Source of the DNA: Pseudomonadota bacterium
GTDB lineage: Bacteria; Myxococcota_A; UBA9160; SZUA-336
NCBI GenBank assembly: GCA_021295775.1
Contig: JAGWBS010000002.1
Span: 31,986-95,985 of the forward strand
DNA: 64,000 nt
Direction: 5' to 3'
The position numbers and the translations under genes are program-made. The notes below the pieces were generated by a model. The model saw only the letters and a list, made by a program, of their open reading frames with translations, ran no database searches and was not told the origin of the DNA. Numbering within the stretch: position 1 is the first letter of the stretch; every line of letters begins with the position of its first letter. This document shows positions 22,314 to 40,762 of the stretch, in pieces.

Positions 22314-22444
22314 TCTAAGCTTGCGCTCCACCCCGAGTCGGACGCATCGCTCGCTCGCGTCCGGCCGGAGGTCGAGCGACGCCGGCGGGCCGGGACCGCG
22401 GGCGAATTCGAGTTGGAGTCCGCCGCCCGCGAGGAGACAGAGCA

Positions 22445-23269: not shown

Positions 23270-23272
23270 GCC

Positions 23273-23680: not shown

Positions 23681-23756
23681 AGGCAGCTTCGGAACACGCG
23701 TGCGAGAGCAGTTCGAGCCGGACCGGGGGAGAAACCGTCAGGTGGTCAGCGGATCC

Positions 23757-25843: not shown

Positions 25844-25849
25844 GACCGC

Positions 25850-27328
25850 GTGCCTGACCCGACCAACGACCCGGACCCGCGCGGGAAATCCGAAGCTCTC
25901 GACGACGCCAACGAACGCGCCTGGGCACGGCGCGGGAGATATCTCGGCGGGGCCGCCGGGGTGCTGCTGGCGACCGTCGTCGCCGTCGTCGGGATGAGCG
26001 TGTTCTTCCCCGGCGCGGACGCTACCCACTCCGATCCCCCCGAAACCGAAGTTCCGCCGGAGTTGCCGGTTCCGGCCCCCTTTCCCGACCGCGAGGCCCG
26101 CGAACTCTTCCTGCAGGCGCTCGAGGACTACCGCGTCGGACCCAAGCCGGAAGTCGAGTCCGAGGCTTTCGCCGCCTGGAGTTCCGAGGCCCGGGCGCGT
26201 CTCGAAGCCGGCGAGAAGGCCGCGGTGGAGGCCTTCGCGAACAGCGCCTTCGGCGAGGCTCTGCGACTCCTGACCGAGACCGCCGAACGCGCCGAGCGCG
26301 AGCTGGAGTCCCGCGACACGGCCTTTCGCGAAGCCCTCGACGACGCCGAGACGGCCCGCGCGGCCGCGGATCACGCGCGCGCATCGAGCCGCATCGCTCA
26401 GGCCCTGAAATGGAAGCCCGCCGACCCCGAGGCGCAGGTCCTGGCCCGGCGAATCGACGAGCTGCCGGCGGTCGCCGAGGCACTGGAAGAGGCCCGCGTG
26501 GCGCGCGCAGAAAACCGCCCCCGGCGCGAACTCGAAGCCCTGCGCAAGGCCCTCGCCGCGGATCCCGACCGCCCCGACGCGAGAGCCCGGGCGGAAGCGA
26601 TCTTTCGGGATCTCGCCGCGAAACGCTACGCGCGCGCACTGAACCGGGGTCTCGCCGCCGCCTCGGCCGGGGACCTGGACCGCGCCCGGGCCCGGCTGGC
26701 CGATGCCCGGTCCCTCGCCCCCGACCGCGAAGAGACGCTCGCGCTCGAGCGCGAAGTGGAAGCTCTGGCCAGACGCGGCGAAGTCCGGCGCGCTTTCGAG
26801 CGCGCCGAAGCGGACGCGCTCGAAGACCGCTGGCGCGAAGCCGCCGCCGGCTACGCCGCCGTCCTGATGCAGGATCCCGTCCACGCCCCGGCTTCCGGAC
26901 GCCTGGACCGCGCCCGGGAAATTCTCGCCACCCGGGCAGCGGTCGAGGGGCTGCTCGCCCGGCCCGAGCGTCTCGCCGAGGCGGGGGCCGAGCGCGCGGT
27001 CGCCGCCCTGATCGAACGAGGTCTCGCGCTCTCGGCACACAGTCCGAGCCTGGCCGGCTCCCTGCGGGAACTCGGCCGCCAGAGCGAGCGCTACCGCAGA
27101 GAGATCAGCGTGCTCGTGATCTCTGACGGACGCACCAGCGTCGCCGTCCGCGGCCTCGGGCGCATCGGCGAGGTTGAAAACAAGTCTCTTCGGCTGCGCC
27201 CCGGCCGCTACACTTTCGAGGGTAGGCGCAAGGGCTATCGCGACAAGCTGGTCGCCGTCGCGCTGACTCCCGAGGACGACGGCCGGGAGATCGAGGTGAG
27301 CTGTGACATCCCTCTCGAAACCAGGTGA
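25850..27328 (+). CDS. Single-pass membrane protein with long Ala/Arg/Glu-rich helical (coiled-coil/TPR-like) region and C-terminal PEGA-like beta domain
   Basis: 492 aa with a GTG start. TM segment YLGGAAGVLLATVVAVVGMSVFF. About 330 aa of helical repeats follow. C-terminus ISVLVISDGRTSVAVRGLGRIGEVENKSLRLRPGRYTFEGRRKGYRDKLVAV resembles a PEGA domain. Confidence 0.65.
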   Translation: MPDPTNDPDPRGKSEALDDANERAWARRGRYLGGAAGVLLATVVAVVGMSVFFPGADATHSDPPETEVPPELPVPAPFPDREARELFLQALEDYRVGPKPEVESEAFAAWSSEARARLEAGEKAAVEAFANSAFGEALRLLTETAERAERELESRDTAFREALDDAETARAAADHARASSRIAQALKWKPADPEAQVLARRIDELPAVAEALEEARVARAENRPRRELEALRKALAADPDRPDARARAEAIFRDLAAKRYARALNRGLAAASAGDLDRARARLADARSLAPDREETLALEREVEALARRGEVRRAFERAEADALEDRWREAAAGYAAVLMQDPVHAPASGRLDRAREILATRAAVEGLLARPERLAEAGAERAVAALIERGLALSAHSPSLAGSLRELGRQSERYRREISVLVISDGRTSVAVRGLGRIGEVENKSLRLRPGRYTFEGRRKGYRDKLVAVALTPEDDGREIEVSCDIPLETR

Positions 27329-27410
27329 ACTCGTGAATTCCCGGCGGACCGGGCGAGGTCCGCGGCGCGCCCGGTCCGAGTCCTCGCCGGCGGGCGACTG
27401 AAGCGAATCC

Positions 27411-28487
27411 ATGCCCTTCCGACGCCGCGAGCCGCCCGGCACCAACCTCGCCCTGCTGGACGTGATGTCCTGCGGGCTCGGCGCCGTGATCCTGGTGCTG
27501 ATGCTCGCCAAGCCTCATCTGGCGACCACCGAGATCCCCGCCCAGGCCGAAGTCCTCGAGGCCGAACTGGTCGGCTTGAACGCCCGGCGCGAAGCGCTGA
27601 ACGCCGAGCTGGCCCGCGCCGAGAGCGAAGCCGAGCGCGAGCGCGTGCGCGTGCTGGCCCTGCGCCGGCGCAGCGGCGTGCTCGAGGCCCGCCGTCGCGA
27701 CCAGTCCCTCGAGACGGCGCAGCGGCGGAGTTCCCTGTCGGCGGTCGAGAGCCTGCTGGAAAACCGTCCGGACCCGCCGACCGCCCCGACGCCCGACACG
27801 GTCGAGTTGGAGGCCAACAACGAGGCCGAGTACCTGATCGGCCTGAAGGTCGAGGGCCGGCGCATCGCCATCCTGATCGACGCCAGCGCCTCGATGACCG
27901 AGGAGAGGCTGATCGAAGTAATCCGGCGCAAAACCGGCACGCCGGACGAGCGTCGCGCCGGCCCCAAGTGGCAGCGCGCCCGCCGCGTCCTGCGCTGGCT
28001 CCTGGCCCGCCTCCCCCCCGACTCCCAGGTCGCGGTCCTCACCTACGCGGAGAAGGCCGAGTTCCTGGGCGAGCAGCGCTGGACGGACGCCTCCGATTCC
28101 GCGGCCCTCGGCGCTCTGGCCGTGGCGCTCGACGAGGTCGATCCCCGGGGTCCGACGAACTTCCGCGCCGGTCTCGACGCCGTCTGGGCGGAGCGTCCCG
28201 ACAGCCTCTACGTGGTCACCGACGGCCTGCCCACCCAGGGACGCGAGAGGAGCTTGCCCCGCCGATTCCTGAGCGGGATCAAGGGCGGCTGCGGGAACTC
28301 GAACACCATCTCGGGGGAATGCCGCCGGGCGCTGATGAACGAGGCCATCGACCGGAACTGGAACGGGCGGGTCGCGAACGCCATCCTGCTGCCGCTCGAA
28401 GGCGATCCCGAAGCTCCGGCGGTCTACGCGAACTGGACGAGAGGCACGGGCGGGCGCCTGCTCGCGCCGAGCCCGGACTGGCCATGA
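27411..28487 (+). CDS. ExbD/TolR/MotB-like Asp-TM anchor + coiled coil + VWA (MIDAS) domain protein, paralog 1
   Basis: 358 aa. N-terminus MPFRRREPPGTNLALLDVMSCGLGAVILVLMLA is a short basic tail followed by LLD at the start of a single TM helix. Coiled coil: EAELVGLNARREALNAELARAESEAERERVRVLALRRR. VWA domain with MIDAS DASAS (IAILIDASASM), a later T (GPTNF) and D (VVTDG). Confidence 0.75.
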   Translation: MPFRRREPPGTNLALLDVMSCGLGAVILVLMLAKPHLATTEIPAQAEVLEAELVGLNARREALNAELARAESEAERERVRVLALRRRSGVLEARRRDQSLETAQRRSSLSAVESLLENRPDPPTAPTPDTVELEANNEAEYLIGLKVEGRRIAILIDASASMTEERLIEVIRRKTGTPDERRAGPKWQRARRVLRWLLARLPPDSQVAVLTYAEKAEFLGEQRWTDASDSAALGALAVALDEVDPRGPTNFRAGLDAVWAERPDSLYVVTDGLPTQGRERSLPRRFLSGIKGGCGNSNTISGECRRALMNEAIDRNWNGRVANAILLPLEGDPEAPAVYANWTRGTGGRLLAPSPDWP

Positions 28488-29455
28488 GACGGCGGCGGCG
28501 CGCGTTCGACGTCTTCAGCATCTCGTTTCTGGACGCGATCGCCTGCGGTTTCGGCGCGGTGATCCTGCTGCTGATCGTCAGCCTGAACGCCGACCGCGCT
28601 CCGGCGGGAGCCCCGCCCGATGTCTCCGCCCTGCTCGACTCGGCCGTCGAAACCCGCCTCGAGACCACCGCCCTGAAAGAGCGTCTGGAACTCAGCCGGT
28701 CGGTGGACGCCGATGCCCGCGCCGAGGCGGCGGAACTCGAAGCGCGCATCCTCGCGGCGAGGGCCGCCTACGAAGCCGACCGCCGGGAAGCCCAACGGCT
28801 CGAGCGCCGACTGGCGAAGCTCATCCCGCCCGAAGAGCGCCCGGCCAGCGCCGCCACGCGCACCCCGGGCCCGGCGGAGGAACGCGACGACGAAGTGGGC
28901 GGGATCCCCGTCGGCAGCGAGTACGTGATCTTCGTGATCGACACCTCGGGATCGATGCGGAGCATCTGGGAAAAGGTCGTCGGGCGCCTCGAAGCCGTGA
29001 TCGACGCCCACCCGACGGTCAGCGGCTTTCAGGTCGTCAACGACAACGGCACCTACCTGCTCCCCGCGTACAAAGGGCGCTGGATCTCGGACACCCCCTC
29101 GCGCCGCCGCAGCGTCAAGAAAATGCTCCGGAATTGGAACAGCCTGTCCAACAGCAGTCCCGTCGAAGGCCTCGAAGAGGCCCTGGAACGCTACGCCCGT
29201 CCCGGCCGCAGGCGCTCGGTGTATGTATTCGGCGACGAGTACACCGGCGGCTCGTACGACGTGGTGCTCGATTCGCTGGAGCGCCACAATCGGGACCCGG
29301 TCAGCGGGCAACCGCTGGCGGAGGTTCACGCCCTGGGCTTCTTCTCGACCGCGGGGGCGACGAGCGCGAGCTACCTGCTGTCGTCGGCGCGTTTTTCGAT
29401 CCTCATGCGCGAGGTCGTGCGGCGCAACCGGGGAACCTACCTGACCGTGCCCTGA
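28484..29455 (+). CDS. ExbD/TolR/MotB-like Asp-TM anchor + coiled coil + VWA (MIDAS) domain protein, paralog 2
   Basis: ATG at 28484 (ATGA overlap with the paralog 1 stop), in frame within track ORF 27968..29455. N-terminus MRRRRRAFDVFSISFLDAIACGFGAVILLLIVS. Coiled-coil segment present. MIDAS DTSGS (VIFVIDTSGSM). 323 aa. Confidence 0.75.
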   Translation: MRRRRRAFDVFSISFLDAIACGFGAVILLLIVSLNADRAPAGAPPDVSALLDSAVETRLETTALKERLELSRSVDADARAEAAELEARILAARAAYEADRREAQRLERRLAKLIPPEERPASAATRTPGPAEERDDEVGGIPVGSEYVIFVIDTSGSMRSIWEKVVGRLEAVIDAHPTVSGFQVVNDNGTYLLPAYKGRWISDTPSRRRSVKKMLRNWNSLSNSSPVEGLEEALERYARPGRRRSVYVFGDEYTGGSYDVVLDSLERHNRDPVSGQPLAEVHALGFFSTAGATSASYLLSSARFSILMREVVRRNRGTYLTVP

Positions 29456-29518: not shown

Positions 29519-30301
29519 TCAGCCAGTCCCGTCGGGATCGGGGGCTGGAAGCGCGCTGATGCGCCCGACCAGCACCTCGTCGCAGTAGCGGCGGGTGTCG
29601 ATCACCAGGCCGTCCTGCAGGCGCTGAAGCTGGTGCAGGAAGAACATCAGCACGATGCTGATCAGCAGCGCCACCAGGGTCGAGTTGAAGGCCAGGCCCA
29701 GACTCTCGGTCATCGCGAAGATGTCGCCCGCCAGCGCCTGGTCCGCCTGGGACAGCGCCCGCCCGATGCCGCGCACGGTGCCGATGAAGCCGATCGAAGG
29801 GATCGCCCAGATCAGGTAGCGGATCAGCGAGTTCTCGGCCTCCTGCTGGGCCGCCAGAGCGTCCACGCCGGCCTCGATCGCCTCGGAGGCGTTCTGCACG
29901 TCGCGCTGGACCGCGAAGCGCCGCAGACCGGCGGCCAGCGTCTGGACCAGGGGCGTGCGCCAGACGTCGGGGCGCTGGCGTCCCAGCTCCTCGAAGCTCC
30001 GGACGGCCCGGGCGGGATCGCCCGAGACGTCGGTGTCCTCGAGCAGGTCGGTGTCGAACAGGTACTGCTGGCGCAGGATCGTCCGGTACTTGTCGAAGAT
30101 CAGGAACAGCCCCCAGACCATCAGCACCAGACAGATTTCCTGCTCGTAGTCCTTCAGTACGATCCAGAGATTGCGCGGAGTCGCCATGCCCGCCTCCATG
30201 GCGGCCTCGATCGACCGCTCTGCCTGGGGGCGGACCCAGCCCAGGTAGGCGGCGTGGATCCCGACGATGGAGGCGGCCAGGGCGGCCAGGCTTCGAAACA
30301 T
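29519..30301 (-). CDS. MotA/TolQ/ExbB-family proton-channel protein, 4-TM MotA-like topology (orphan stator A-subunit)
   Basis: 260 aa. Four hydrophobic helices with a cytoplasmic insert between TM2 and TM3. Family core: LIWAIPSIGFIGTVRGIGRAL...ESLGLAFNSTLVALLISIVLMFFLHQL. Confidence 0.75.
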   Translation of the reverse strand: MFRSLAALAASIVGIHAAYLGWVRPQAERSIEAAMEAGMATPRNLWIVLKDYEQEICLVLMVWGLFLIFDKYRTILRQQYLFDTDLLEDTDVSGDPARAVRSFEELGRQRPDVWRTPLVQTLAAGLRRFAVQRDVQNASEAIEAGVDALAAQQEAENSLIRYLIWAIPSIGFIGTVRGIGRALSQADQALAGDIFAMTESLGLAFNSTLVALLISIVLMFFLHQLQRLQDGLVIDTRRYCDEVLVGRISALPAPDPDGTG

Positions 30302-30302
30302 T

Positions 30303-30431
30303 TCAGATGTCCACCGGGAAGGTCGTGGGCGAGTTCAGACTGAGGCGCCCCTGCGCGATCGCCACCCCGGCCGCCGCGGCGGCCGTCACGGCCAGGGCGA
30401 CCAAGAGCCAGAGAATGCGCCGACGCTGCAT
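30303..30431 (-). CDS. 42-aa single-pass membrane micro-protein (not in ORF track)
   Basis: Hand translation gives MQRRRILWLLVALAVTAAAAAGVAIAQGRLSLNSPTTFPGDI*. GGAGGA lies 6 nt upstream of the ATG (30431). It starts 9 nt after the upstream stop (30441), and its own stop is 1 nt before the MotA-like ATG (30301). High GC3. Confidence 0.5.
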   Translation of the reverse strand: MQRRRILWLLVALAVTAAAAAGVAIAQGRLSLNSPTTFPVDI

Positions 30432-30440
30432 GGTCTCCTC

Positions 30441-32420
30441 CTATAGATAGCGGCCGATGCGAAAGCCTAGGTCATCCCGGCGGCCGCCGAACCCTTCGCG
30501 GCGGGCGGCGCGAAGTCCGCTGCGCGTCCCCGTGCGCCAGCTCGCTCCCTTGACCACGTGAACGCTTCCGTAGCCGGGACCCAGGGGGTCGATTTCGACC
30601 GATCCCGGGGCCGGAGGCTCGAGCAGATAGAAGTCGTGGACCCACTCGCTGGCGTTGCCGGTCAGGTCGAACAGTCCCGAGCGCTCGGGCGCGAAGCTGC
30701 CGACCGGGGCGAGCCGGGCGAATCCGTCCGAGTAGCGGGGGACGTAGGTTTCGACCGACCCCTTGGCAGTCTCGTCGGCGACGTTGCCCACTCCGGACGG
30801 CAGCGTATCCGAGTCGCCCCAGGGAAAGACCGTCCGGCGCCCGCGCCCGGCCTGCCGCGCCAACCACTCCCACTCCGCCTCGGTCAGCAGGCGGTAGCCG
30901 TCCGGCGGATCCTGGCCTCCTCCCGCGTGGGCGTAGAACGGAGTCAGGCCCTCCCGGACGCTCAGCCAGTCGCAGAACGCCACCGCCTCCGCCCAGGAGA
31001 CCGAGGTCGCGGGGTGGTCGCCCCGCTCCCCGGGGTGCCCGGGGCGGAAGCTGCGGAACTGCTCCAGGCTGACTTCGTGCAGTCCGGCGTAGAACGGCCG
31101 GCTCAGCCGGACGTCGCGCTCGAACTCGTTGGCGCGCTGTCCCTTCTCGCCGCGCGGATCGCCCATCCGGAACGCCCCCGCCGCGCCGGGATTGAGCAGC
31201 ACCAGGCTCGCGCCGACGGAGTTGGTGTAGCGGACGGGCGCGCGCGCCAGCCGCGCCTCCCGCTCGGTCAGCAGGGTCTCCCGCAGCAGCGTGGCCCGCT
31301 CGGGGTCCGGAGCGAGCGTGCGGCGGACCGTCTCGTAGCCGCGGCGCTGCAGCTCGATCCGCGTTTCCTGCGCCGGCAGAACCAGATCGAGGGGGGTCCG
31401 GCCGGCGGGCTCGCCGTCGATCCGCACCTCGGAAACGGGATCGGATTCGATCCGCGCGCGCCCGGTCTTGCGGGTCAGGTGCAGCTCCAGGGTCCGCGTC
31501 TCCCCCCGGTCGAGGGTCGCGTGCAGGGTGCGGGGAAAGTAGCCCTCCAGCGAGTAGCGCACGCTGTGCTCGGCGTGCGCCGCTACGCGCTCGGGATTCG
31601 AGGCGCGGAATCCGTCGACCAGCAGCAACCCTCCCGCTGGGGACAGGTCGAAGCGCAGCTCGGCGGAGGGAGGGACCAGGCGGTAGTTGCGGCGGGCCAG
31701 GGGCCGGTCGCGGGTCAGCTCCAGCGTGTCGCGGACGGGCGCGTAGCCCGGCAGTCGGAGCGCGACCGGATAGCGCCCCGCGGGCAACTCCCGCTCCAAA
31801 GGCGTCGGCAGGGGGTCGAGGCCTTCGATCTCGACCGACGCCCCGCTCGGCTCGGAGCGCAGTTCGAGCCGTCCCCGGGCGCGACTCAGCGGCAACGAGA
31901 CCTCCAATCGGGCGCCCCGCTCGACCTGGATGTCGAGGTCGGCGATCTCGTACCAGTCGTGGCGGGCGGAGAGACGGTAGGCTCCGGCGTGCAGTTCGTG
32001 CTCCAGGAGCGCGCCGATGCCCGCCAGCGCGTCGTCCACGTACCAGCGTGTTTCCACCTCGGGAGGATGCGTGGAAGCGTGGACCCGTCCGGGCAGCGGC
32101 TCGAGCGCGACGCTCAGGGTCCGGCCGGGGGTGTGGATCGGCAGCGTCCTGGCGGCGAACCCGGGTGCCGAAACGCGAACCTCCAGTTCGCCCCCGAGAT
32201 CGTAGACCCGGCCCAGGATCACCAGCGCCCAGCCGGACGCGAGTTCGATCCGGGCGTTCTCCGACGCCTCCGGGGGTTGCACCTCGACGGGCGTGCCGCG
32301 CGTCAGCGCCAGCGTCACGCCCAGCACCAGCGCGCCGACCGCCAAGCCCAGCGCGGCGTAGAGGGAGCGGAGCCACCAGCGCCTCTGCACCCTTCGAAGC
32401 TGGCGTTCAGTGGGAGACAT
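30441..32420 (-). CDS. Membrane-anchored PEGA-repeat protein with C-terminal FGE-sulfatase-like (SUMF1/GldK-like) domain lacking the FGE cysteine pair
   Basis: 659 aa. TM segment WWLRSLYAALGLAVGALVLGVTLAL. At least 3 PEGA-like units (e.g. LRSEPSGASVEIEG...LPAGRYPVALRLPGYAPVRDTLEL; IESDPVSEVRIDGEPAGRTPLDLVLPA...LQRRGYETV). FGE-like C-terminus: HPATSVSWAEAVAFCDWL...YRLLTEAEWEWLAR...GNASEWVHD...VVKGASWRTGTRSGLRAARRE...DLGFRIGR. No Cys occurs where FGE has its CxxxxC. Confidence 0.8.
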   Translation of the reverse strand: MSPTERQLRRVQRRWWLRSLYAALGLAVGALVLGVTLALTRGTPVEVQPPEASENARIELASGWALVILGRVYDLGGELEVRVSAPGFAARTLPIHTPGRTLSVALEPLPGRVHASTHPPEVETRWYVDDALAGIGALLEHELHAGAYRLSARHDWYEIADLDIQVERGARLEVSLPLSRARGRLELRSEPSGASVEIEGLDPLPTPLERELPAGRYPVALRLPGYAPVRDTLELTRDRPLARRNYRLVPPSAELRFDLSPAGGLLLVDGFRASNPERVAAHAEHSVRYSLEGYFPRTLHATLDRGETRTLELHLTRKTGRARIESDPVSEVRIDGEPAGRTPLDLVLPAQETRIELQRRGYETVRRTLAPDPERATLLRETLLTEREARLARAPVRYTNSVGASLVLLNPGAAGAFRMGDPRGEKGQRANEFERDVRLSRPFYAGLHEVSLEQFRSFRPGHPGERGDHPATSVSWAEAVAFCDWLSVREGLTPFYAHAGGGQDPPDGYRLLTEAEWEWLARQAGRGRRTVFPWGDSDTLPSGVGNVADETAKGSVETYVPRYSDGFARLAPVGSFAPERSGLFDLTGNASEWVHDFYLLEPPAPGSVEIDPLGPGYGSVHVVKGASWRTGTRSGLRAARREGFGGRRDDLGFRIGRYL

Positions 32421-32440: not shown

Positions 32441-33553
32441 TCAGTAGACGAGATCCGTATCGGTAATCTCCTGGCGGACCAGCCGGCCCTCGCGGTAGTA
32501 GGACGTGACCTCGACATCCCCATCGCCGTTCAGGTCCTCTTCCTTGCGGGCCAGGACCGGCCGGGCTGGGTCGTCGCCTTCATAGTATTCCCAGACGTCG
32601 GAACGTCCGTCTTCATTCGCGTCGATCTCGGCGCGCTCCGGGAAACCGGAAAGATCGTAGAAGGTACGGATCTCCATCCCGCCGGAAAAATCCCGGTCTT
32701 CCAGCTCGATGGCGCGACGCCGGCCCTCGTACTCCACCCGCCGGTCGATGCTTCCGTCGTTGTTGGTGTCGTGCTCCTCGTCGGTCAGCCAGCCGTTCGC
32801 GTAGCGGAACAAGCCGTCGCGGACCCCGTCGAAGTCCCGGTCGACCACGACCCGCGTCGCGCGGCCGTCCGCGCCGTACTCGGTCCAGCGGTCCGGCATC
32901 CCGTCGTGGTTGGTGTCCTGTTCGCGAGAGGCGATCCCGCCGGAGCCGTGGTAGGCGTTGACCGTGTCGAAGCGGCCGTCGTAGTCGGTGTCCTCCAAAC
33001 GCGCGAGCAGGGCGCCGCTGCGCGCGTCGTGCTCGATGCGGATTTCCGGATTCCCGTCGCGGTCCGCGTCCAGCAGCTTGACCAGCAGCTCCTGTTCGCC
33101 GACGCGGTGAAGTTCGCGTTCGAAGATGGATTCCGGCAGATCCCGCTCGACCGGTGCGCGCGGAGCTGCCAGCGGATCGACGGACGCCCGGGGCTCGGCG
33201 CCGCCCGCGGCGGCCGCCCCGCTGCGAGCCAGCTTCTCTTCGCGTCGGATCTGCTCCAGCAGCTCTTCCTGCCGCCGGAGTTCGGCCTCGATCTCGTCCT
33301 CCAGCGCCCGCTGGCGCCAGAGTTCGCCCTCGATCTCGGCTTCCAGGATTTCTTCGGAGCGAGCGCTGCCCTGCTGGCTGCGGACGGGCAGGCTTCCGTC
33401 GTCCCCCCGGCGCTCGGTCGCGGCGAAAGGCACCGAGGGGCCGAACGCAGCCGCGCTGGCGGCTCCGGCGCTCCCGGCCGGGGCGCCTCCGAGCAGCGCA
33501 GCCAGCAGCCAGACGGGGGTGGAGAAGGGCGCTGCAGGGCTACGAATGCGCAT
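32441..33553 (-). CDS. Secreted coiled-coil protein with 8 Dx[DN]xDG-type repeats (short paralog of the giant repeat protein)
   Basis: Start trimmed to ATG at 33553, preceded by GGAGGCGGAGGAA. Signal-like N-terminus MRIRSPAAPFSTPVWLLAALLGGAPAGSAGA. Acidic coiled coil: EILEAEIEGELWRQRALEDEIEAELRRQEELLEQIRREEK. Repeats such as DTDYDGRFDTV, DTNHDGMPDRW, DTNNDGSIDRR, DANEDGRSDVW. Confidence 0.7.
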   Translation of the reverse strand: MRIRSPAAPFSTPVWLLAALLGGAPAGSAGAASAAAFGPSVPFAATERRGDDGSLPVRSQQGSARSEEILEAEIEGELWRQRALEDEIEAELRRQEELLEQIRREEKLARSGAAAAGGAEPRASVDPLAAPRAPVERDLPESIFERELHRVGEQELLVKLLDADRDGNPEIRIEHDARSGALLARLEDTDYDGRFDTVNAYHGSGGIASREQDTNHDGMPDRWTEYGADGRATRVVVDRDFDGVRDGLFRYANGWLTDEEHDTNNDGSIDRRVEYEGRRRAIELEDRDFSGGMEIRTFYDLSGFPERAEIDANEDGRSDVWEYYEGDDPARPVLARKEEDLNGDGDVEVTSYYREGRLVRQEITDTDLVY

Positions 33554-33613: not shown

Positions 33614-36600
33614 CTATCGCTTCCAGAAATCGCTGAACCCGCCGCAGCTCAGCGCCCCGAATTCCTTCGTTCCCGTGGGCGCCGCTTCGCCGTCGACCTC
33701 TACCGCCCGCTCGCTGGCCAGGTCGAAACGCACGTCCACGCGGCCGTCGAAGTCGCGGTCCTCGGCCTGCACGCTGGGGGCGCCAGCGGCGTAATCGACC
33801 CAGACGTCCGGGCGGCGGTCGGCATTGGTGTCCGCCTCCATGCGCAGCGGCACCCCGTCCTCGTACAGGTTGCGGCGGTCGCCGTAGCCGTCCCGGCTCG
33901 AGTCCTCGACGCTGACCCGGATCACGCCCGCTTCGTACTCGATCCGGGTGCGCGGCGTGCAGCGCCACTGTGCGTTGCCCTCGGCGTCGAAGCGCGTGAG
34001 CCGGTCCGGGAGGCCGTTGCAGTTGCGGTCCTCCTCCTGGGCGGCGATCCGCTCGCCGTCGAAGAGGAAGACGATGTTGGGGCGGGTGCAGCTCCCGCGG
34101 GCCTCGGCCTGGATCCGCTTGACGCCGCCTTCCAGGTGCTCCCAGACATCGATCCAGCCGTTCTGGTTGGTGTCCCGCTCCACGCGCCGGACCTCGCCGC
34201 CGGCCAGGAAGGTGAAGGTGTCGTAGGCGCAGTCTCCGTCGCTGTCCACGGCGTCCTCGACCACCTGCCCATCCGGTGAGAAACGCTGCCGGTGATCCAG
34301 GCAGCCCGCCCCCCGGTCCTCCTCGAGTTCCGCGGCCACGCCGTCCGCGAAGCGCGTCACGCGCTCGGGCTCGCCGTCCTCGTCCAGGTCTTCGATCCGC
34401 TCGCGGGGCTCGCCGGCGGCGTCGAAGACGAGGCTCAGGTCGGGCTCGCCGTTGGCGTCGGTGTCGCGCCGCTCCAGGGCGATCTTCCCGTCCGGGGCGA
34501 GGTCGAGCCAGCGGTCGACCCGGCCGTCGGCGTCGGTGTCGTGCTCCTGGCGCAGCTCGACCCCCGCCTCGAGGTAGACGCGGACGTCGAAGCGGCCGTC
34601 GCCGTCGGTGTCCCTGCGGACTTCGCGCGGTTCCGACTCGCCCGCGGCGTAGAGATCGATCTTGTCCACCCGGCCGTCGGCGTCCGCGTCGGACTCGACC
34701 CGCGAAAGCGCGCCATCGAGGTAGTGGGAGACGGTCTCGAAGCGGCCGTCGCCGTCGAGGTCCGATTCCTGCCGCGCGAGCCGCCCGTCCTCGTAGTGGG
34801 ACAGACTGTCGAACTCGCCGTCGAAGTCGGTGTCCGAGCGCAGGCGAACTTGAACGCCGTGCCGGAATTCGCCGATGTGGTCGTCCCGGCCGTCGAAGTC
34901 GCGGTCCTCGGCCTGGCCGGTCTGAATCCCCTGCGCGTAGGTCTTCGCGGCATCGGTGCGGCCGTCGCCGTTGGTGTCCACGCGCTCGAGCCGCGGGCGG
35001 CCCGCGGCGTCGAACTCGGTCCACTGGTCGAAGGCGCCGTCGCCGCTCGCATCCCGCATCTGGCGGGCGATACGGCCCGCCTCGAACTCGCTGACCGCCT
35101 CGGCGAAGCCGTCGCCGTCGGCGTCGCGCTCCTCGCGCACCCGCCTCTCTCCGCTGTCGTCGTAGAGCGTGGACACCTCCGGGACGCCGTTTCCGTCGGC
35201 GTCGAGTTCGACCCGCGCGCGGCGCTCCCGGCGATAGTGGACGATCGCCTCGAAGACGCCGTCGAAGTCCTCGTCGCTGAAATCGCGGGCGATGGAACCC
35301 TGGGCGTCGTATTCGGCGCGGTAGTCCACTCGGCCGTCGAAGTTGCGGTCCTCCGTCAGCCCCGCGGCGAGTTCGCCCGACAGCCGCGCGGTCCGGTCCG
35401 GCTCCCCGTCGCCGTTGGTGTCGGTCTCCACCCGAGTGCGCGCGCCGCCGGCGTAGTCCGTCCAGGTGTCCACCCGGCCGTCGCCGCTGGTGTCCTCCAG
35501 CACGCGCTGGGGCTCGCCGGAAACCGGGTCGAGCATCACCCACTGGTCGGGCTGGCCGTCGCCCCGCGTGTCGCGCTCCTGCTTGTGCATGCGGCCGTCC
35601 TCGAAGAAGCTCCACAGGTCCGTGCGGCCGTCGAAATCCTCGTCCAGGAACTGCTGCAGCGGCCGGCCGTCCCGCAGCTTCTCCGTGAAGTCGACGCGAC
35701 CGTCGGCGTTGCGGTCCTGTTCGCGCTCGCTGGGCTGGCCGTCCGCGAAGCGCGTGCGCAGTTCGAGCGCGCCGTCGCCGTCGCTGTCCTCGCGCTGCTC
35801 GGCGAGCTGCCCCGCGAGGAAGTCGTACTCCACGTCCACGCGACCGTCGTAGTCGCGGTCCTCGCGCTGGACCGAGCGCTGGCCGCCCGCGAACTCCACC
35901 CAGGTGTCGACCGCACCGTCCGCGTTGGTGTCGCGCTCGCTGGCGACCTTGGCGCCGTCGCGGTAGCGATCGTCCACGTCGGCCGTTCCGTCGCCGTCCG
36001 CGTCGCGCGTCTCGCGCTCCAGCGCGTCGTCCCGGTATTCGCGCCAGACGTCGAAGACGCCGTCGGCGTCGCTGTCGATCTCCTCGCGGACCCGCACTTC
36101 CCGCTCGTCGTAGTGGACCGCGATCTCTATCCGACCGTCGCTGTCCGCGTCGCGTTCCTGGCGCACCCGCCGGCCGTCCCGGAAAAACAGCAGCGTCTCG
36201 TGGCGGCCGTCGTGGTCCACGTCGACCTCCTCGCGCGCGAGCGCCTCGCCCCGGTAGTGGCCGATCCGGTCGGGCGAGCCGTCGCCGCTGGTGTCTTCCT
36301 CGGTGCGGATCTTGAGCCCCTCGGCGTAGTGGATGCGCAGGTTAAGCTCACCGTCGCCGGTCGTGTCCTGCTCCTCGAGCTGCTTGTTCCCCTGGGCGTC
36401 GAAGGTCGAAAGCGCCTCAGGCCGGCCGTCTTCGTCCGGGTCGAGCCACTTCTGGTAGACCCGGTCGCCGCGGTACAGGGTGACGTCGTTCGGCTTGCCG
36501 TTGCCGTCGGGATCCCGTTCCAGCCGCGTCCGGACGCCCGCCTCGAAATACAGGTGGGTGTCCGGTCGTCCGTCGAAGTCGCTGTCGTCCCGCTGCAGCG

Positions 36601-36931
36601 AAGGCCTTCCCTCGGCGTCCAGGTCCACCCAGCGGTCGGGCCGGCCGTCGCCCGAGCGGTCCTCTTCGACGCGGATCTCCCGGCCGTCCTCGAAGAAGCG
36701 CCACTGGTCGACCCGGCCGTCGCGGTCGCCGTCCAGCTCGATGCGCTCGATCTCCCCGTCCAGGAAGTGGTCCCAGCGGTCGGGGGAGCCGTCCCCGTCG
36801 AGGTCCGCGACCTGCCGCAGAAGTTGTCCGGTCGCGGGGTCGAACTCGCGAACCACCCCCGCCCGGGCCAGGTCGGGCCCGAACGCCGACAGCAGCAGGC
36901 CAGCGGCGCAGGCCCGAGCGATCACGGGCAC
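33614..36931 (-). CDS. Giant secreted tandem-repeat protein (about 1105 aa, about 40 Dx[DN]xDG Ca-loop-like repeats, Cys-containing C-terminal region)
   Basis: Lies in the frame of track ORF 33614..38071, whose part upstream of 36931 overlaps tonB in another frame and is junk. Candidate starts are GTG at 36931 (VPVIARACAAGLLLSAFGPDLARAG, signal-like) or GTG at 36925 (GTGA overlap with the tonB stop). Repeat period is about 24-25 aa, e.g. EEDRSGDGRPDRWVDLDAEGRPSLQR / ERDTNADGAVDTWVEFAGGQRSVQR. Confidence 0.75.
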   Translation of the reverse strand: MPVIARACAAGLLLSAFGPDLARAGVVREFDPATGQLLRQVADLDGDGSPDRWDHFLDGEIERIELDGDRDGRVDQWRFFEDGREIRVEEDRSGDGRPDRWVDLDAEGRPSLQRDDSDFDGRPDTHLYFEAGVRTRLERDPDGNGKPNDVTLYRGDRVYQKWLDPDEDGRPEALSTFDAQGNKQLEEQDTTGDGELNLRIHYAEGLKIRTEEDTSGDGSPDRIGHYRGEALAREEVDVDHDGRHETLLFFRDGRRVRQERDADSDGRIEIAVHYDEREVRVREEIDSDADGVFDVWREYRDDALERETRDADGDGTADVDDRYRDGAKVASERDTNADGAVDTWVEFAGGQRSVQREDRDYDGRVDVEYDFLAGQLAEQREDSDGDGALELRTRFADGQPSEREQDRNADGRVDFTEKLRDGRPLQQFLDEDFDGRTDLWSFFEDGRMHKQERDTRGDGQPDQWVMLDPVSGEPQRVLEDTSGDGRVDTWTDYAGGARTRVETDTNGDGEPDRTARLSGELAAGLTEDRNFDGRVDYRAEYDAQGSIARDFSDEDFDGVFEAIVHYRRERRARVELDADGNGVPEVSTLYDDSGERRVREERDADGDGFAEAVSEFEAGRIARQMRDASGDGAFDQWTEFDAAGRPRLERVDTNGDGRTDAAKTYAQGIQTGQAEDRDFDGRDDHIGEFRHGVQVRLRSDTDFDGEFDSLSHYEDGRLARQESDLDGDGRFETVSHYLDGALSRVESDADADGRVDKIDLYAAGESEPREVRRDTDGDGRFDVRVYLEAGVELRQEHDTDADGRVDRWLDLAPDGKIALERRDTDANGEPDLSLVFDAAGEPRERIEDLDEDGEPERVTRFADGVAAELEEDRGAGCLDHRQRFSPDGQVVEDAVDSDGDCAYDTFTFLAGGEVRRVERDTNQNGWIDVWEHLEGGVKRIQAEARGSCTRPNIVFLFDGERIAAQEEDRNCNGLPDRLTRFDAEGNAQWRCTPRTRIEYEAGVIRVSVEDSSRDGYGDRRNLYEDGVPLRMEADTNADRRPDVWVDYAAGAPSVQAEDRDFDGRVDVRFDLASERAVEVDGEAAPTGTKEFGALSCGGFSDFWKR
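33725..36805 (-). repeat. Protein-level tandem repeat array (about 40 units of roughly 72-75 nt) inside the giant CDS; boundaries approximate
   Basis: By-eye enumeration of 40 clear and 3 degenerate units, each with E-x-D-x-[DN]-x-DG-x-x-D-x-[WF/aliphatic]...G. The units are divergent at the DNA level, so this is not a simple nucleotide repeat. Confidence 0.7.
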
Positions 36932-37977
36932 CGATCCGGATCCGGGCAACTTCCGTCTTGAGTGAAGATCAGGCGCATCGGCTTGTTCACGATGTAGTGG
37001 ATGCTCGTGGGCGGAGGCGGAAAGGGGCTGGCGTGCCGGAACGCCCGGCTGGCCGTCTCGCCCAGCAGCGTGTCGGTGATTCGCGCAACCTCCACGTCGT
37101 GCGCGGATCCGCCGCGGTCCAGCCGGAAGCTCAGCGTCACCTGGCCGTCGCCCAGTTCGGGGGGCACGGACCAGCGCTCGTACACGCGCCGGCGGATCCG
37201 CTCCAGGTACTCCACGCAGACGGGGTCGGCCATGCAGTCTCTCTGCTCTCCGACCAGCGCGCCGCGACGGCCCGCGCCGTCGAGCAGCGCCCGGGAATCC
37301 CCGACCTCGACGTCGGCCACGCGCGCGCCGATCACGTCGCCTTCGACGGCGTTGTCGGCGATCACTCCGCGCGCGACGTTCGGAGCCGAGACCAGCGCGG
37401 GGCGCGGGCTGACCTCGGGGGAAGCGGCCTCCATCAGCCTCGGGCCGCGGGTCGTCGGCGCGGCCCGCACGCGGGTGACCTCGGCGCTCGCGGCCCGGGG
37501 AATCCGCTTGGGCTGCGCCACGGGTCGCTCGGAGAATACGCTCAGCGCGCGGGCCTCGACCTGCATCCGGCGGGGAGAGGCGGTCACGGCGGTGCGCGTG
37601 ACTTCGGCGAGCTGGGTGCTTTCCAGCCGCTCGACCCGGCTCTTCTCCACGATCTCCGGCTGATGGGTCGGCCGGTGGCGGATCACGCTGGCGTCCGGCA
37701 CGCGCTGCGCGAGCCGCTTGCGCCGCAGCTCGGGCGGCTGGGGCACGGGCTCGGGCTCGAACACCCGCACCAGCACGACCTCCTCCCGGGGGAGAACCGC
37801 GCCCAGGATCACGTTCCAGAACGCCGCCAGCAGCGCCAGGTGCAGGCCGATCGACACCACTGCGATCGCCCAGCGGGGCACCCGCCCGCCGCGATCGTCG
37901 AGCGGGTCGTAGCGGGGGACGCTCGCGGCGATCTCCGGCCCGAGGGGGCCGCTGGCCAGGGGACTCGCGCTCGCCAT
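36922..37977 (-). CDS. tonB: TonB-family energy transducer
   Basis: 351 aa. N-terminal anchor RWAIAVVSIGLHLALLAAFW contains the SxxxH motif (SIGLH). Pro-rich stretch EPEPVPQPPE. C-terminal TonB_C-like domain: YLERIRRRVYERWSVPPELGDGQVTLSFRLDRGGSAHDVEVA...ASRAFRHASPFPPPP. Confidence 0.8.
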   Translation of the reverse strand: MASASPLASGPLGPEIAASVPRYDPLDDRGGRVPRWAIAVVSIGLHLALLAAFWNVILGAVLPREEVVLVRVFEPEPVPQPPELRRKRLAQRVPDASVIRHRPTHQPEIVEKSRVERLESTQLAEVTRTAVTASPRRMQVEARALSVFSERPVAQPKRIPRAASAEVTRVRAAPTTRGPRLMEAASPEVSPRPALVSAPNVARGVIADNAVEGDVIGARVADVEVGDSRALLDGAGRRGALVGEQRDCMADPVCVEYLERIRRRVYERWSVPPELGDGQVTLSFRLDRGGSAHDVEVARITDTLLGETASRAFRHASPFPPPPTSIHYIVNKPMRLIFTQDGSCPDPDRCP

Positions 37978-38291
37978 CGGAAAGTTTGGATTGCCTCTGC
38001 GTGCGTTCTGTTCGACCGTCGGTCCGGAATGCCGAACTCTCCGAAAGACCGCGCGGCCAGAAGCGGCTCAACCTAGAATCGCCCCGCCTTGCGTGTCAAC
38101 CCGAGCCGGGTCGTAACTGCTCGACAATTCAGCCAATTCGAGATTTCCAACGGAGCCGCGGAGGGGGCCGGGAGCCCGGGCCGGGTCGGGGCTCCGAGCG
38201 CCGCGCGAATTGTCCGCGGCTTGAACCGGAGCTCAGTTTCGGTTATCGTTCGCGGCCTGCGGCGTGTTCCTGGCGGCTAGTCGCACGTTTC

Positions 38292-39041
38292 ATGTGCACC
38301 CTGATCCTGCTGGACCGAGTCGTGCCCGGAATCCCCATTCTGGTCGCGGCAAACCGGGACGAATTCCTGTCGAGGCCCGCGGCTCCGCCCGCGGTCTTCC
38401 GTCCTGGGGGCCTGCCGGCCATCGCGGCACCCCAGGATCTCGAAGCCGGAGGGACATGGATGGGCGTCAACGCCGCGGGCCTGTTCGCGGGGCTCACCAA
38501 CCGCCCCGCGGAAAGCCGGGACGAAAGGCGACGCTCGAGGGGGCTGCTGGTGATGGACGCACTGGGGAGCCGGGACGTGGCGGAAGTCGAAGCGGGGCTC
38601 GGTGGAGACCCACACCGGCGCTACAACCCGTTCTTCCTGTTGAGCGCCGACGGCCGCCGCTGTTCGCTGGCGAGCGTGAGCGAGACCTTCACGCGCGTGC
38701 GGGCGCTGGAGCCCGGAGTGCACGTGGTCGGCAACGAGGACCCGAGCGATCCCGGCTCCGACAAGATCTCCCGGATCCGCTCGGACGCGGAGCGGAAGAT
38801 CGACCCGCAGGAGTCCTTCGAGGCGCTTTTCGCCGGACTGGTCGAGATCCTGGGCGGCCACGAACTCGATTCCGACCCGTTCCGGAACACCTGCGTGCAC
38901 ACCCCGGACTACGGTACGCGCTCCGCCGCGGTCCTGGCGCTGGGTCCGCGGGCCCGGGGCTACTGGGCGAGCGAAGGCCCTCCCTGCAAGACGAAGTTCA
39001 ACGACTACACCAGCCTGCTGGACGCTCTGCCGCAGGCCTGA
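38292..39041 (+). CDS. NRDE-family (TANGO2/DUF833-like) protein
   Basis: ATG at 38292 within track ORF 37986..39041. N-terminus MCTLILL...PILVAANRDEF has Cys2 and the NRDE motif that names the family. 249 aa. Confidence 0.8.
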   Translation: MCTLILLDRVVPGIPILVAANRDEFLSRPAAPPAVFRPGGLPAIAAPQDLEAGGTWMGVNAAGLFAGLTNRPAESRDERRRSRGLLVMDALGSRDVAEVEAGLGGDPHRRYNPFFLLSADGRRCSLASVSETFTRVRALEPGVHVVGNEDPSDPGSDKISRIRSDAERKIDPQESFEALFAGLVEILGGHELDSDPFRNTCVHTPDYGTRSAAVLALGPRARGYWASEGPPCKTKFNDYTSLLDALPQA

Positions 39042-39054
39042 CCCGAGGGAAGAC

Positions 39055-39375
39055 TTGAAGCGAATCGGAAGCAATCTGAGGCCTGCGGACCAGAAGCCGC
39101 AGCGCAATCTGACCAACATCATCGTCTACAGCGAGGACGAGAAGCCGCGCAACGACTACCCGGAGAAGATCATCTCCCCCGCGCTGCCGAAGTCCTGCTG
39201 CACGGACGAGAACCGCGAACTCGTCGGCAACACCAAGGAAGTCGACGGCTTCAAGTTCTGCTACAAGATCTGCCAGGTCTGCGGACACGCCGTGCGCTAC
39301 TTCTACCCGGCCGTCGAGACCAACGACGAAGCGGTTCGCGAGTACCGCGCCTGGAAGCGCTACATGGCGCAGTAG
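39055..39375 (+). CDS. Small Lys/Cys-containing hypothetical protein (possible zinc-ribbon)
   Basis: 106 aa. TTG start with GAGGGA 7 nt upstream, 13 nt after the NRDE stop. High GC3. Cysteines at KSCC...FCYKICQVCGH. Confidence 0.5.
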   Translation: MKRIGSNLRPADQKPQRNLTNIIVYSEDEKPRNDYPEKIISPALPKSCCTDENRELVGNTKEVDGFKFCYKICQVCGHAVRYFYPAVETNDEAVREYRAWKRYMAQ

Positions 39376-39433: not shown

Positions 39434-40762
39434 ATGCTCGAAACTCTGCGGGAAGCCGAACGCTACCTCGACGGGCTGATCGACCTGGAGCGCCGGGCCG
39501 ACTTCGATTACGAGTCGCTGGGCCTGGCGCGCATCGAGGCGCTGCTGGCCGCGATCGGCGAGCCGCAGAAGGGTCTGGCGTGCGTGCACGTGGCGGGCTC
39601 GAAGGGCAAGGGCGCGACGACCCTCGCCGGCGCCGCTCTGCTGCGCGCCGCCGGCCGGCGCAGCGGCAGCTTCACCTCGCCGCATCTGGAGAGCTGGCGG
39701 GAGCGCTTTCAGATCGACGGCGAGCCGGTCGGCGAAGCGACCCTGCTGGCCGGCCTGAGGCGCATCCGGCCGGCCGTCGACCGCCTGCGGGCCGACCCCC
39801 GGCTGCGGCCGAGCTTCTTCGACGTCAGCACCGCGCTGGCCCTGGAGCTGTTCCGGGACGCGGGGATCGAGTGGGCGGCCGTCGAGGTGGGTCTCGGGGG
39901 GCGGCTCGATTCGACCAACCGGGTCGAGTCGCGCGTCTCGGTGATCACCGGCATTCAGCTGGAGCACACCGACAAGCTCGGCTCCACGCTGTCCCGGATC
40001 GCGCGCGAGAAGGCGGGCATCCTGCGCCGGGGCGTGCCGGCCGTGGTCGGGCCGCTGGAGCCCGAGGCCCGACGGACGATCGAGGGGCGAGCCCGCGAGC
40101 TGGGAATCCGCCTGCGGCACGTGCCCGCCCCCGAAGTGCGCGCCACGCCCGAAGGCCTGAGCTTTCGCCTGGCCGATGGACGGCCGCTGTCGGTCCCGCT
40201 GCTGGGAGCTCACCAGGCGCTGAATCTGGCCCTGGCCGTGGAGTCGGTGGAAACCGCGCTGGAGCGCCGCCTCGATGCGCGGGAGCTGGACGCGCTGCGC
40301 GGCCTCTCGCTGCCCGCGCGCATCGAACGGATGGGCGGCGCGATCCTGGACTGCTCGCACACGCCGGACTCGGTGCGGGCGCTGCGGCGCGCGCTCGATG
40401 ACGCCTGGCCCGGCCGGCGCTGGACGCTGGGCCTGTGCGTCTCCCGCGACAAGGACGTCGACCGCATGCTCGCCGAACTCGCTCCGCGGGTGCGCGCCTG
40501 CGTGGTCAGCGCCGCCGAGCCCACCCGCTCCCTGGACCCCCACGAGCTGGCGGAGCGGGCGCGGGCGGCGGGGATCGAAACCGTGCACGTCGAGCCGGAC
40601 CCGCTCGAGGCGCTGCGGCGGACCCGCGATTCGGCCCGTCCGGACGAGCTGGTCGTGCTGACGGGTTCGGTCTATTTCGCGGGGGCGGTCCGCGCCGAAC
40701 TGCGCCGGCTCTCCAGTGCCGGGGAGGCCGAAAGCGGCTCTCCCGCGGGGGGCGATCGGTAA
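39434..40762 (+). CDS. folC: Bifunctional folylpolyglutamate synthase / dihydrofolate synthase
   Basis: 442 aa. Has HVAGSKGKGAT P-loop, TSPHLESWRERF, and Mur-ligase middle and C-terminal domains. Confidence 0.85.
   Translation: MLETLREAERYLDGLIDLERRADFDYESLGLARIEALLAAIGEPQKGLACVHVAGSKGKGATTLAGAALLRAAGRRSGSFTSPHLESWRERFQIDGEPVGEATLLAGLRRIRPAVDRLRADPRLRPSFFDVSTALALELFRDAGIEWAAVEVGLGGRLDSTNRVESRVSVITGIQLEHTDKLGSTLSRIAREKAGILRRGVPAVVGPLEPEARRTIEGRARELGIRLRHVPAPEVRATPEGLSFRLADGRPLSVPLLGAHQALNLALAVESVETALERRLDARELDALRGLSLPARIERMGGAILDCSHTPDSVRALRRALDDAWPGRRWTLGLCVSRDKDVDRMLAELAPRVRACVVSAAEPTRSLDPHELAERARAAGIETVHVEPDPLEALRRTRDSARPDELVVLTGSVYFAGAVRAELRRLSSAGEAESGSPAGGDR

Follow-up and report, generated by a model that had tools for sequence, protein, structure and literature searches.

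The subject of this article is a 64,000-nucleotide stretch of contig JAGWBS010000002.1 (NCBI GenBank assembly GCA_021295775.1, a metagenome-assembled genome of a Pseudomonadota bacterium placed by GTDB in the Myxococcota_A), hereafter the window, and in particular a gene on its minus strand for a long repeat protein that we call BigRep (33614..36931, 1105 codons plus a stop codon). The product is predicted to be one long antiparallel ribbon of 43 beta-hairpins (about 88 strands) arranged as an open meander, and its gene directly follows a gene for a TonB/TolA-family transducer, an association that is near-universal among the related loci. We regard the chances as evenly balanced that BigRep is a functional partner of an ExbB/ExbD–TonB-type motor, and the details of the model presented below are less secure than this core claim. 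To our knowledge, only a few outputs of ExbB/TolQ-type motors are known (nutrient import, Pal mobilisation, gliding, and flagella), and how force crosses the periplasm remains a matter of debate. A conserved, co-translated ribbon of fixed length with about 40 loops would be a new load or strut for such motors, and a motor role would give a function to a widespread repeat.

The Gene and Its Repeat Array

The reading frame can be taken as a real gene because its third-position G+C content (GC3) of 0.83 is the signature of genuine genes in a window of 72% G+C. An independent gene caller returned the same 1105-residue product from a Logan contig of the same organism, the product aligns collinearly with 30 orthologues, and long open reading frames such as those in the other frames commonly result from high G+C. 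Translation may begin at the GTG at 36925 instead of that at 36931; the former overlaps the stop codon of the upstream TonB-like gene as GTGA. It should be added that the exact 1105-residue protein is absent from a collection of 15 billion proteins, in which both neighbours from the same NCBI assembly are present; NCBI may have chosen another start or left the gene uncalled.

A preliminary description of this DNA, made from its letters alone, had proposed a secreted protein of about 1105 residues. The evidence for the gene and a probable signal peptide at residues 1–24 (36860..36931, minus strand) agree with this proposal. The signal peptide was read from the sequence and has an h-region, AAGLLLSAF, followed by a cleavage-type site, ARA↓G. 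By eye, a hydrophobic start ending in a small-x-small (AxA-type) site is seen in 31 of the 31 aligned orthologues, which supports secretion of the protein; residues 1–23 have a predicted local distance difference test score (pLDDT) below 50 in the full-length model. The mature protein has a mass of 122 kDa, an isoelectric point of 4.35, and 285 acidic versus 150 basic residues, giving a net charge of about −135. Sorting by a MYXO-CTERM, PEP-CTERM, or lipoprotein signal was considered and rejected, with no model match, a tail after the conserved cysteine that is too short for a membrane helix, and N-terminal cysteine positions that do not fit a lipobox.

The repeat array occupies residues 41–1079 (33695..36811, minus strand) and consists of 43 units of 24–26 residues, supported by unit statistics, structural models, and unit-by-unit orthology. 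All units are contiguous; 40 carry a recognisable motif and three (units 35, 38, and 40) are degenerate, the same count that had been made by eye. The units share the consensus EEDTDGDGRPDVWTHYADGRRARQ. BigRep contains 36 copies of the strict motif D.[DNS].[DNS]G, compared with an average of 0.9 and at most 5 in 1000 composition-preserving shuffles, and successive motifs are spaced by 24–26 residues in 29 cases, against a shuffle mean of 0.00. The loop Dx[DN]x[DN]Gxx[DE] is complete in 30 units and nearly complete in about 37. Tandem Repeats Finder detected no tandem repeat in the gene at the DNA level, and the units are only about 28% identical to one another, so the array is ancient and not a product of recent expansion. 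Adjacent units and units two apart are equally similar (both 28%), and there is thus no two-unit super-repeat.

Both ends of the array are distinctive. The conserved mature N-terminus, GVVREFDPATGQLLRQ (36812..36859, minus strand), contains a conserved V-x-E-[YF]-D and is modelled as the first, capping hairpin, with strands at residues 26–30 and 37–42 that present a free edge strand of the ribbon. The cysteines are residues 8, 877, 901, 948, 971, 991, and 1096. The six in the mature protein all lie within the last 229 residues, near the C-terminus as the preliminary description had noted, and the protein ends in FSDFWKR; units 1–34 are free of cysteine. In this Cys-bearing C-terminal third (residues 871–1105; 33617..34321, minus strand), only residues 877, 901, 991, and 1096 are conserved across the family; C948, C971, and units 34 and 38 occur in the closest subgroup only. 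The conserved pairs 877/901 and 991/1096 suggest disulfides and an oxidising compartment. In the alignments, the C-terminal tail (33614..33694, minus strand, including the stop codon) has an invariant L-x-C-G-x-F-x-x-F-W followed by basic residues; residues 1087–1105 are modelled with low confidence.

Calcium-Type Loops in a Predicted Hairpin Ribbon

The BigRep loop is of the type Dx[DN]xDG, to which a further Asp is added two residues after the Gly. Calcium binding by this motif is near-identical across at least twelve families; the motif shows a strong bias to proteins that are periplasmic, surface-located, or secreted, and an Asp as few as two residues beyond its end can serve as an additional ligand (PMC3123361). 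With 30 complete loops, BigRep has both features of the Dx[DN]xDG class of Rigden and Galperin, namely the linear motif and a nearby acidic ligand, and it is a well-founded inference that the loops bind calcium. When the motif lies between two strands, as in integrin alpha, PilY1, and rhamnogalacturonan lyase, the arrangement is called a “calcium blade” (PMC3123361).

The loops had been described at first as EF-hand-like. In both BigRep models they are flanked by strands, as in the calcium blades of integrins, and Pfam EF-hand models match over the length of the loop only, with E values of 0.008–9.5 that are below the cut-offs. The EF-hand proper is a 12-residue calcium loop between two helices and is usually paired. 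In other words, the loop type was correctly recognised, whereas the helix-loop-helix setting does not apply.

The structure of the repeat was modelled at two scales. An AlphaFold model of eight units (units 17–24), based on an alignment of non-overlapping eight-unit blocks from BigRep, its small neighbour, and three homologues, has a pLDDT of 96.3 and a predicted template modelling score (pTM) of 0.85. Each 24-residue unit forms two strands and a 9-residue loop: the loop D-x-[DN]-x-[DN]-G-x-x-D, a 6-residue strand, a 2-residue turn, and a 7-residue strand, the turn being “xG” at unit positions 18–19. The full-length model, built from six sequences, has a pLDDT of 78.5 and a pTM of 0.34 and shows 88 strands in unbroken succession over residues 26–1078; its weak spots are the signal peptide, the two subgroup-specific units, and the last 19 residues. 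Because the connections of a meander alternate between its two edges, the acidic loops would line one edge and the tight turns the other. One face of the sheet carries the W/V/L, A/I/V, and L/V positions. If flat, the predicted ribbon would be about 42 nm long, an estimate from 88 strands at about 4.8 Å each in standard sheet geometry, with a curvature that is uncertain at this low pTM. The molecule had been imagined as an extended solenoid or fibre; the models agree with an elongated shape and replace the solenoid by a beta-hairpin meander.

Foldseek searches with the full-length model ranked the YD-repeat sheets of Rhs proteins, teneurins, and Tc toxins highest (E values down to 1e-19, probability 1.0, more than 1100 aligned columns), but the TM-scores of these matches are only 0.08–0.10 and the root-mean-square deviation (rmsd) is about 55 Å, so the model is an open ribbon and not a cocoon. 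The next matches are engineered single-layer sheets of OspA, with TM-scores of 0.24–0.30 normalised to the target; with one face carrying the W/V/L, A/I/V, and L/V positions, the BigRep sheet may or may not stay single-layered. The eight-unit model matches meander sheets and not propellers, and propellers appear for the full-length model as weak, low-probability matches. All matches of the modelled fold to solved structures are local only.

An Orthologous Family of Fixed Length

A word-indexed homologue search was saturated by low-complexity words and returned seven to eight proteins even with a 31-sequence profile. We therefore describe the family from a scan with the C-terminal 310 residues, which are specific to true orthologues; with one genome per species, it yielded 77 loci, nearly all from metagenome-assembled genomes of uncultured Myxococcota or “Deltaproteobacteria”. 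The repeat spans 1061–1067 residues in the closest subgroup and mostly 1011–1020 in the others, with a minority at about 940–990, and identity is about 35%. An alignment of 31 orthologues is collinear over its 1219 columns, with no shift of register, the non-motif positions are evenly conserved along the array, and the difference in length between the subgroups amounts to the two extra units (34 and 38) of the closest subgroup. The fixed length and the collinear alignment indicate that each unit has its own orthologue and that the number of units is under selection. Such constancy points to a defined length or to numerous specific contacts and speaks against an adhesin stalk that evolves loosely; adhesins commonly vary in repeat number.

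Linkage to TonB, ExbB, and ExbD

The gene directly upstream of BigRep (36922..37977, minus strand) encodes a protein of 351 residues, annotated by NCBI as “TonB C-terminal domain-containing protein”. Its layout comprises a cytoplasmic N-terminus, a transmembrane helix with SIGLH, a Pro-rich stretch, a linker, and a TonB_C-type domain. The SxxxH motif in a transmembrane helix is the signature of TonB and TolA, and its Ser and His are conserved at the consensus level in an alignment of 44 transducer sequences. Pfam TonB_2 matches the window protein with 23.3 bits (cut-off 22), NCBIfam tonB_Cterm matches the orthologue in locus L014 with 34.6 bits (27.1), and tolA_full is sub-threshold. The features that define the TonB/TolA family, namely a transmembrane helix with SxxxH, a periplasmic linker, and a TonB_C fold, are thus all found in this protein. 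Its stop codon overlaps the start of BigRep, and the two genes are probably translationally coupled.

According to gene calls, the gene immediately upstream of BigRep is TonB-like in 54 loci, and in five more it is visible as an open reading frame match only; together these are all the full-length loci with enough upstream sequence. An ExbB/ExbD pair is present in 47 of the 77 loci. In one subgroup it is divergent and upstream, and in the closest subgroup of the window it is convergent and downstream. Because the linkage has been kept through this rearrangement, it appears to be due to selection and not to inertia. In the window, the pair consists of an ExbB/TolQ-type proton-channel subunit (22445..23269, plus strand; Pfam MotA_ExbB, 86 bits) and an ExbD/TolR-type subunit (23273..23680, plus strand; Pfam ExbD, 85.6 bits), which by phmmer are orthologous to the BigRep-linked pair of related loci. 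The preliminary description had expected the repeat protein to co-occur with TonB- and MotA-like genes. The TonB part holds near-universally and recurs in independent families, as described below, and the conserved stator is the ExbB/ExbD pair at 22445..23680; the MotA-like gene at 29519..30301 has a counterpart in none of the 77 loci.

Recurrence in Other Repeat Families

The same association is found outside the BigRep family. In a Nitrospinae locus, genes for ExbB, ExbD, a TonB-like protein, and a 430-residue repeat protein follow one another on the same strand and are followed by unrelated genes, with no TolB or Pal; we have accordingly rejected a canonical Tol-Pal operon as the setting of BigRep, the Tol models also being below their cut-offs. 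A 581-residue protein (P0156; 22 units by eye) is encoded between a TonB-dependent receptor and an ExbB–ExbD–TonB set, downstream of which lie a periplasmic binding protein and a FecCD-type ABC importer. A metagenome scan for this separate family of about 580 residues recovered 80 loci of 39–62% G+C. Among the 43 loci with at least 2.2 kb of downstream sequence, ExbB (39/43), ExbD (42/43), and TonB (41/43) are immediately downstream on the same strand; the receptor and ABC genes around this family vary, whereas ExbB, ExbD, and TonB are constant. The gene for the repeat protein of about 580 residues heads repeat–ExbB–ExbD–TonB operons in metagenomes from sediment and other sources (loci L086–L165 and L081:8001-9746), often with a TonB-dependent receptor or a FecCD-type importer nearby. 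These smaller operons offer a simpler system for the motor-partner idea.

The repeat is also fused to TonB_C itself. Two such proteins (P0151 and P0042) score above the Pfam cut-offs, and a third (P0139) is recognised by phmmer only, without a Pfam match. P0139 opens with a lipoprotein-like signal (AIGC), and P0042 has an additional alpha/beta-hydrolase-like tail. A further candidate fusion, P0032, was rejected as being, by eye, a frameshift-ridden chimera of the two adjacent genes.

Family Placement of the Repeat

The preliminary description could not assign the repeat to a named family, and the Pfam and NCBIfam searches with BigRep and its units likewise gave no curated family at cut-off. 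The whole protein matches no family at threshold in Pfam, NCBIfam, or PADLOC. When four-unit fragments or an idealised consensus serve as queries, the models for FG-GAP, TSP_3, EF-hand, Excalibur, and dockerin align to the 10–14 residues of the loop only. No natural fragment matches FG-GAP or FG-GAP_3, and the idealised four-unit consensus does so over 10–11 loop residues. An FG-GAP/integrin-type propeller was rejected given this loop-only consensus match, the fold matches to meander sheets, and the absence of a two-unit period. Thrombospondin type 3 repeats were also rejected, with a match over 12 residues of the idealised consensus, an E value of only 7.3 for a natural fragment, and no cysteine in units 1–34.

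DUF6802 comes closest, with 26.9 bits (cut-off 27) for one 99-residue BigRep fragment over 58 residues, although the whole protein is unmatched. It gives 16.2 bits with the small repeat protein of the window and matches 25 of 60 other repeat-bearing relatives at E≤0.001; we found no mention of it in the open-access literature. MORN_2 does not match BigRep, but one relative has been named YwqK by JGI and another has a faint MORN_2 match, and a distant kinship to the MORN-variant/YwqK hairpin repeats is possible. On the sequence evidence, BigRep appears to be a member of no characterised family.

A HMMER search of 1.84 billion representatives of 50%-identity clusters found 3264 proteins at E≤0.001, of which 797 reach E≤1e-10, and most repeat-bearing representatives are 200–650 residues long. 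The repeat is thus a widespread and essentially unannotated building block, filed as “hypothetical”, DUF6802, or “adhesin”.

A Proposed Model for BigRep and Its Putative Motor

How might such a ribbon work with a proton-driven motor? We speculate that BigRep is exported by the Sec pathway and that calcium helps it to fold into a stiff, fixed-length ribbon, in which up to about 40 Ca2+ ions would stiffen one edge and disulfides would lock the C-terminal part. Its location is most likely periplasmic. It would act with the TonB/TolA-type transducer made from the same, translationally coupled message, which would in turn be energised by the ExbB/ExbD (TolQ/TolR-like) proton-driven stator. TonB and TolA are described as binding their partners by beta-strand addition. 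Because both ends of the ribbon are free-edged and conserved, we propose that the C-terminal domain of the transducer may grip, in the same way, the free edge strand at the N- or C-terminal end of BigRep. The ribbon would then be a fixed-length arm, tether, or load, and the assembly as a whole might serve to tether the layers of the envelope or set their spacing, to anchor the motor, or to move something. Calcium occupancy, the periplasmic location, direct contact with the transducer, and the use of force are all parts of this proposal that we infer.

A broader idea, which we advance tentatively and ourselves hold to be rather doubtful, is that these ribbons are an unrecognised fourth component class of Ton/Tol-type motors, a rigid periplasmic arm gripped by strand addition. 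If so, the arms would have about 14, 22, or 43 hairpins according to the lineage, and motor output would extend beyond opening a TonB-dependent receptor or moving Pal.

Several observations weigh against a role of BigRep as a motor partner. Two proteins, P0006 and P0158, carry the same repeat without any Ton linkage, so the repeat is a general building block. Genes for EPSP synthase and phosphoglycerate dehydrogenase are also syntenic at the BigRep loci, and the gene order in Myxococcota may be partly inherited. Neither a membrane anchor nor a domain for peptidoglycan binding or for the outer membrane was found in BigRep, and it is therefore hard to see how it would bear a load. Finally, the global shape of the full-length model is uncertain at its pTM. 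In about 20 group-B loci (such as L053, L055, and L066), a GldA/GldF/GldG-like ABC set (ATPase, ABC-2 permease, and ABC_transp_aux) lies beyond ExbB/ExbD; it accompanies the EPSP synthase and phosphoglycerate dehydrogenase genes and may reflect conserved gene order only.

Alternative Explanations

We consider it unlikely, though the strongest of the alternatives, that BigRep is a surface adhesin or matrix fibre beyond the outer membrane, comparable to Lsa25.6 of Leptospira or to calcium-stiffened adhesins of the RTX type, with the Ton genes serving its export, retention, or regulation. The only named model that matches it is NCBIfam NF050087 (Lsa25.6 family adhesin), with 99.5 bits over seven stretches. 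Lsa25.6 is a 25.6-kDa surface adhesin and has been listed among the leptospiral fibrinogen-binding outer membrane proteins. A long, acidic, and (as predicted) disulfide-bonded protein would suit such a role, as would the bias of the loop motif towards surface and secreted proteins (PMC3123361). However, the cut-off of the model is 150 bits, so BigRep shares the repeat alone and is no Lsa25.6 equivalog. A known outer-membrane sorting signal, a gene for a secretion partner, and an anchor were not found in the locus, adhesins do not usually show a fixed length with orthology at the unit level, and the strict pairing with a TonB-family gene would be left unexplained.

Lower still in our estimation is a periplasmic store or shuttle for a metal (calcium, lanthanides, or another cation), accessory to TonB-dependent uptake. 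With 30–40 acidic loops per chain and its strong negative charge, BigRep could hold many cations; the sole match in a sequence search of the Protein Data Bank is lanmodulin (E value 0.03), which has the same loop spacing of about 24 residues; and the neighbours of P0156 include a TonB-dependent receptor, a periplasmic binding protein, and a FecCD-type importer. The lanmodulin match, however, is non-significant and covers the loops only, and it is these receptor and ABC neighbours that vary while ExbB, ExbD, and TonB stay. No TonB-dependent receptor was found in the BigRep loci, and a fixed number of units with unit-by-unit orthology is not obviously needed for storage.

It also seems improbable that BigRep stands in for TolB in a Tol-Pal-like system, as its gene position after a TolA-like gene might suggest. 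The best NCBIfam models for the ExbB and ExbD of the window are TolQ and TolR, the transducer touches tolA_full, an OmpA-type peptidoglycan-binding lipoprotein is encoded in the ExbB/ExbD operon of the closest subgroup, and a tetratricopeptide repeat (TPR) protein of 240–285 residues follows BigRep in several loci (directly in L011, L012, L014, and L046, but not in L023). On the other side, all the Tol-specific scores are far below their cut-offs, BigRep has neither the N-terminal alpha/beta domain nor the six-bladed, Pal-binding propeller of TolB and matches neither TolB nor PD40, the lipoprotein is of the YiaD type and not Pal, and the TPR protein misses the CpoB model.

Least probable, and in our view very doubtful, is a compact closed body, either a Rhs/YD-like cocoon or a string of calcium-blade propellers in which each four-stranded blade would take two units. 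In its favour, Foldseek does rank such shells highest, a conserved unit number suits a closed architecture, the consensus repeat touches FG-GAP models, and tandem calcium-blade propellers are known (PMC3123361), but we have rejected the cocoon on the poor superposition given above (with the caveat of the low pTM of the model) and the lack of a Rhs core, plug, toxin domain, or Pfam RHS_repeat match in BigRep or its fragments, and the propeller matches are weak, with FG-GAP confined to the loop and no two-unit super-repeat.

Other Genes of the Window and Related Loci

The operon that contains BigRep continues downstream on the minus strand. A small repeat protein of 370 residues (32441..33553; NCBI MCE2389990.1, “hypothetical protein”) combines a signal peptide and a charged coiled-coil-like stretch with eight units of the BigRep repeat, and ends in DLVY. 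Its counterpart, 420–553 residues as called, is at the same position in the closest subgroup, and relatives (P0005–P0007) have TPR repeats before four to six such units. The distal genes encode, according to Pfam, a protein with PEGA and FGE-sulfatase domains (30441..32420) and a second MotA/ExbB-like protein (29519..30301). The best NCBIfam model for the former is GldK/PorK (57.8 bits, cut-off 350), and, as with the MotA-like gene, none of the 77 related loci has a counterpart. These operon-distal genes (29519..32420) are genome-specific and outside the conserved module. In two loci (L001:8866-15445 and L002:4501-11080), a protein of 1814 residues (P0004) carries a different acidic repeat, shorter by eye (“DFDGDGxPE”); its gene is preceded and overlapped by one for an FGE-sulfatase-domain protein, echoing that of the window operon.

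The ExbB and ExbD genes of the window belong to a single long plus-strand run (21351..29455), in which some genes abut or overlap. Its order is an M28 peptidase, ExbB, ExbD, a Gly/Ser/Asp/Glu-rich putative lipoprotein (23700..24623), two proteins without assignment (24620..25843 and 25850..27328), and two von Willebrand A (VWA) proteins (27411..28487 and 28484..29455). In the closest related loci, the ExbB/ExbD operon instead contains a VWA protein, the YiaD-type OmpA lipoprotein, and an M28 peptidase. Each VWA protein of the window carries its von Willebrand A domain at the C-terminus and, at the N-terminus, a membrane segment with an Asp (LALLDVMSCGLGAVILVLML and ISFLDAIACGFGAVILLLIV, respectively), which by eye recalls the essential Asp of ExbD, TolR, and MotB. 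Together with the nearby MotA-like gene, they may make up a second stator of an unusual kind.

Divergently upstream of the TonB-like gene, 37986..39375 (plus strand) encodes a TANGO2-family protein and a family-less protein of 106 residues. Both genes are syntenic in the closest related loci and are followed by a Mur-ligase-like gene (39434..40762). In five loci (L011, L012, L014, L023, and L046), the opposite strand downstream of BigRep has a small gene cluster for a clan AA aspartic protease and an exosortase-family, XrtH-like protein (80 bits, cut-off 86); a PEP-CTERM-like tail is absent from BigRep.

Comparison with Known Systems

Among the library models, only DUF6802, which has no known function, and NF050087 cover whole units of the BigRep type and not just the loop. 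The calcium blades share with BigRep the same 9-residue Dx[DN]x[DN]GxxD loop between two strands in an exported protein; however, they build four-stranded propeller blades, whereas BigRep combines each loop with two strands and repeats this unit 43 times as an open meander. The RTX adhesins and toxins are a functional analogy, as tandem acidic repeats made rigid by calcium outside the cytoplasm, but their GGxGxD nonapeptides, parallel beta-roll, and type I secretion have no equivalent in BigRep; with a period of 24–26 residues and another consensus, an RTX beta-roll was rejected. The OspA sheet of Borrelia and its engineered extensions are, like BigRep, elongated meanders of consecutive hairpins, although OspA has few hairpins, globular caps, and no calcium loops. 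The shells of Rhs/YD proteins, teneurins, and Tc toxins are, again like BigRep, very long antiparallel sheets of tandem hairpins of about 20–25 residues; BigRep lacks their closed cocoon, YD motif, Rhs core, and plug or cargo domain and carries calcium-type loops instead.

With respect to the Ton and Tol-Pal systems, a MotA/ExbB channel, an ExbD/TolR subunit, and an SxxxH transducer with a TonB_C domain are all genetically coupled at the BigRep locus, although the genes score below the cut-offs of all the Ton/Tol-Pal equivalog models. We found no description of this module in the literature, within searches of open-access text. The fourth gene encodes, instead of a TonB-dependent receptor, TolB, or Pal, the predicted ribbon of 43 hairpins. 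We rate BigRep as a combination of a known calcium loop with a hairpin meander, and the system around it as one of the Ton/Tol type with an unprecedented partner.

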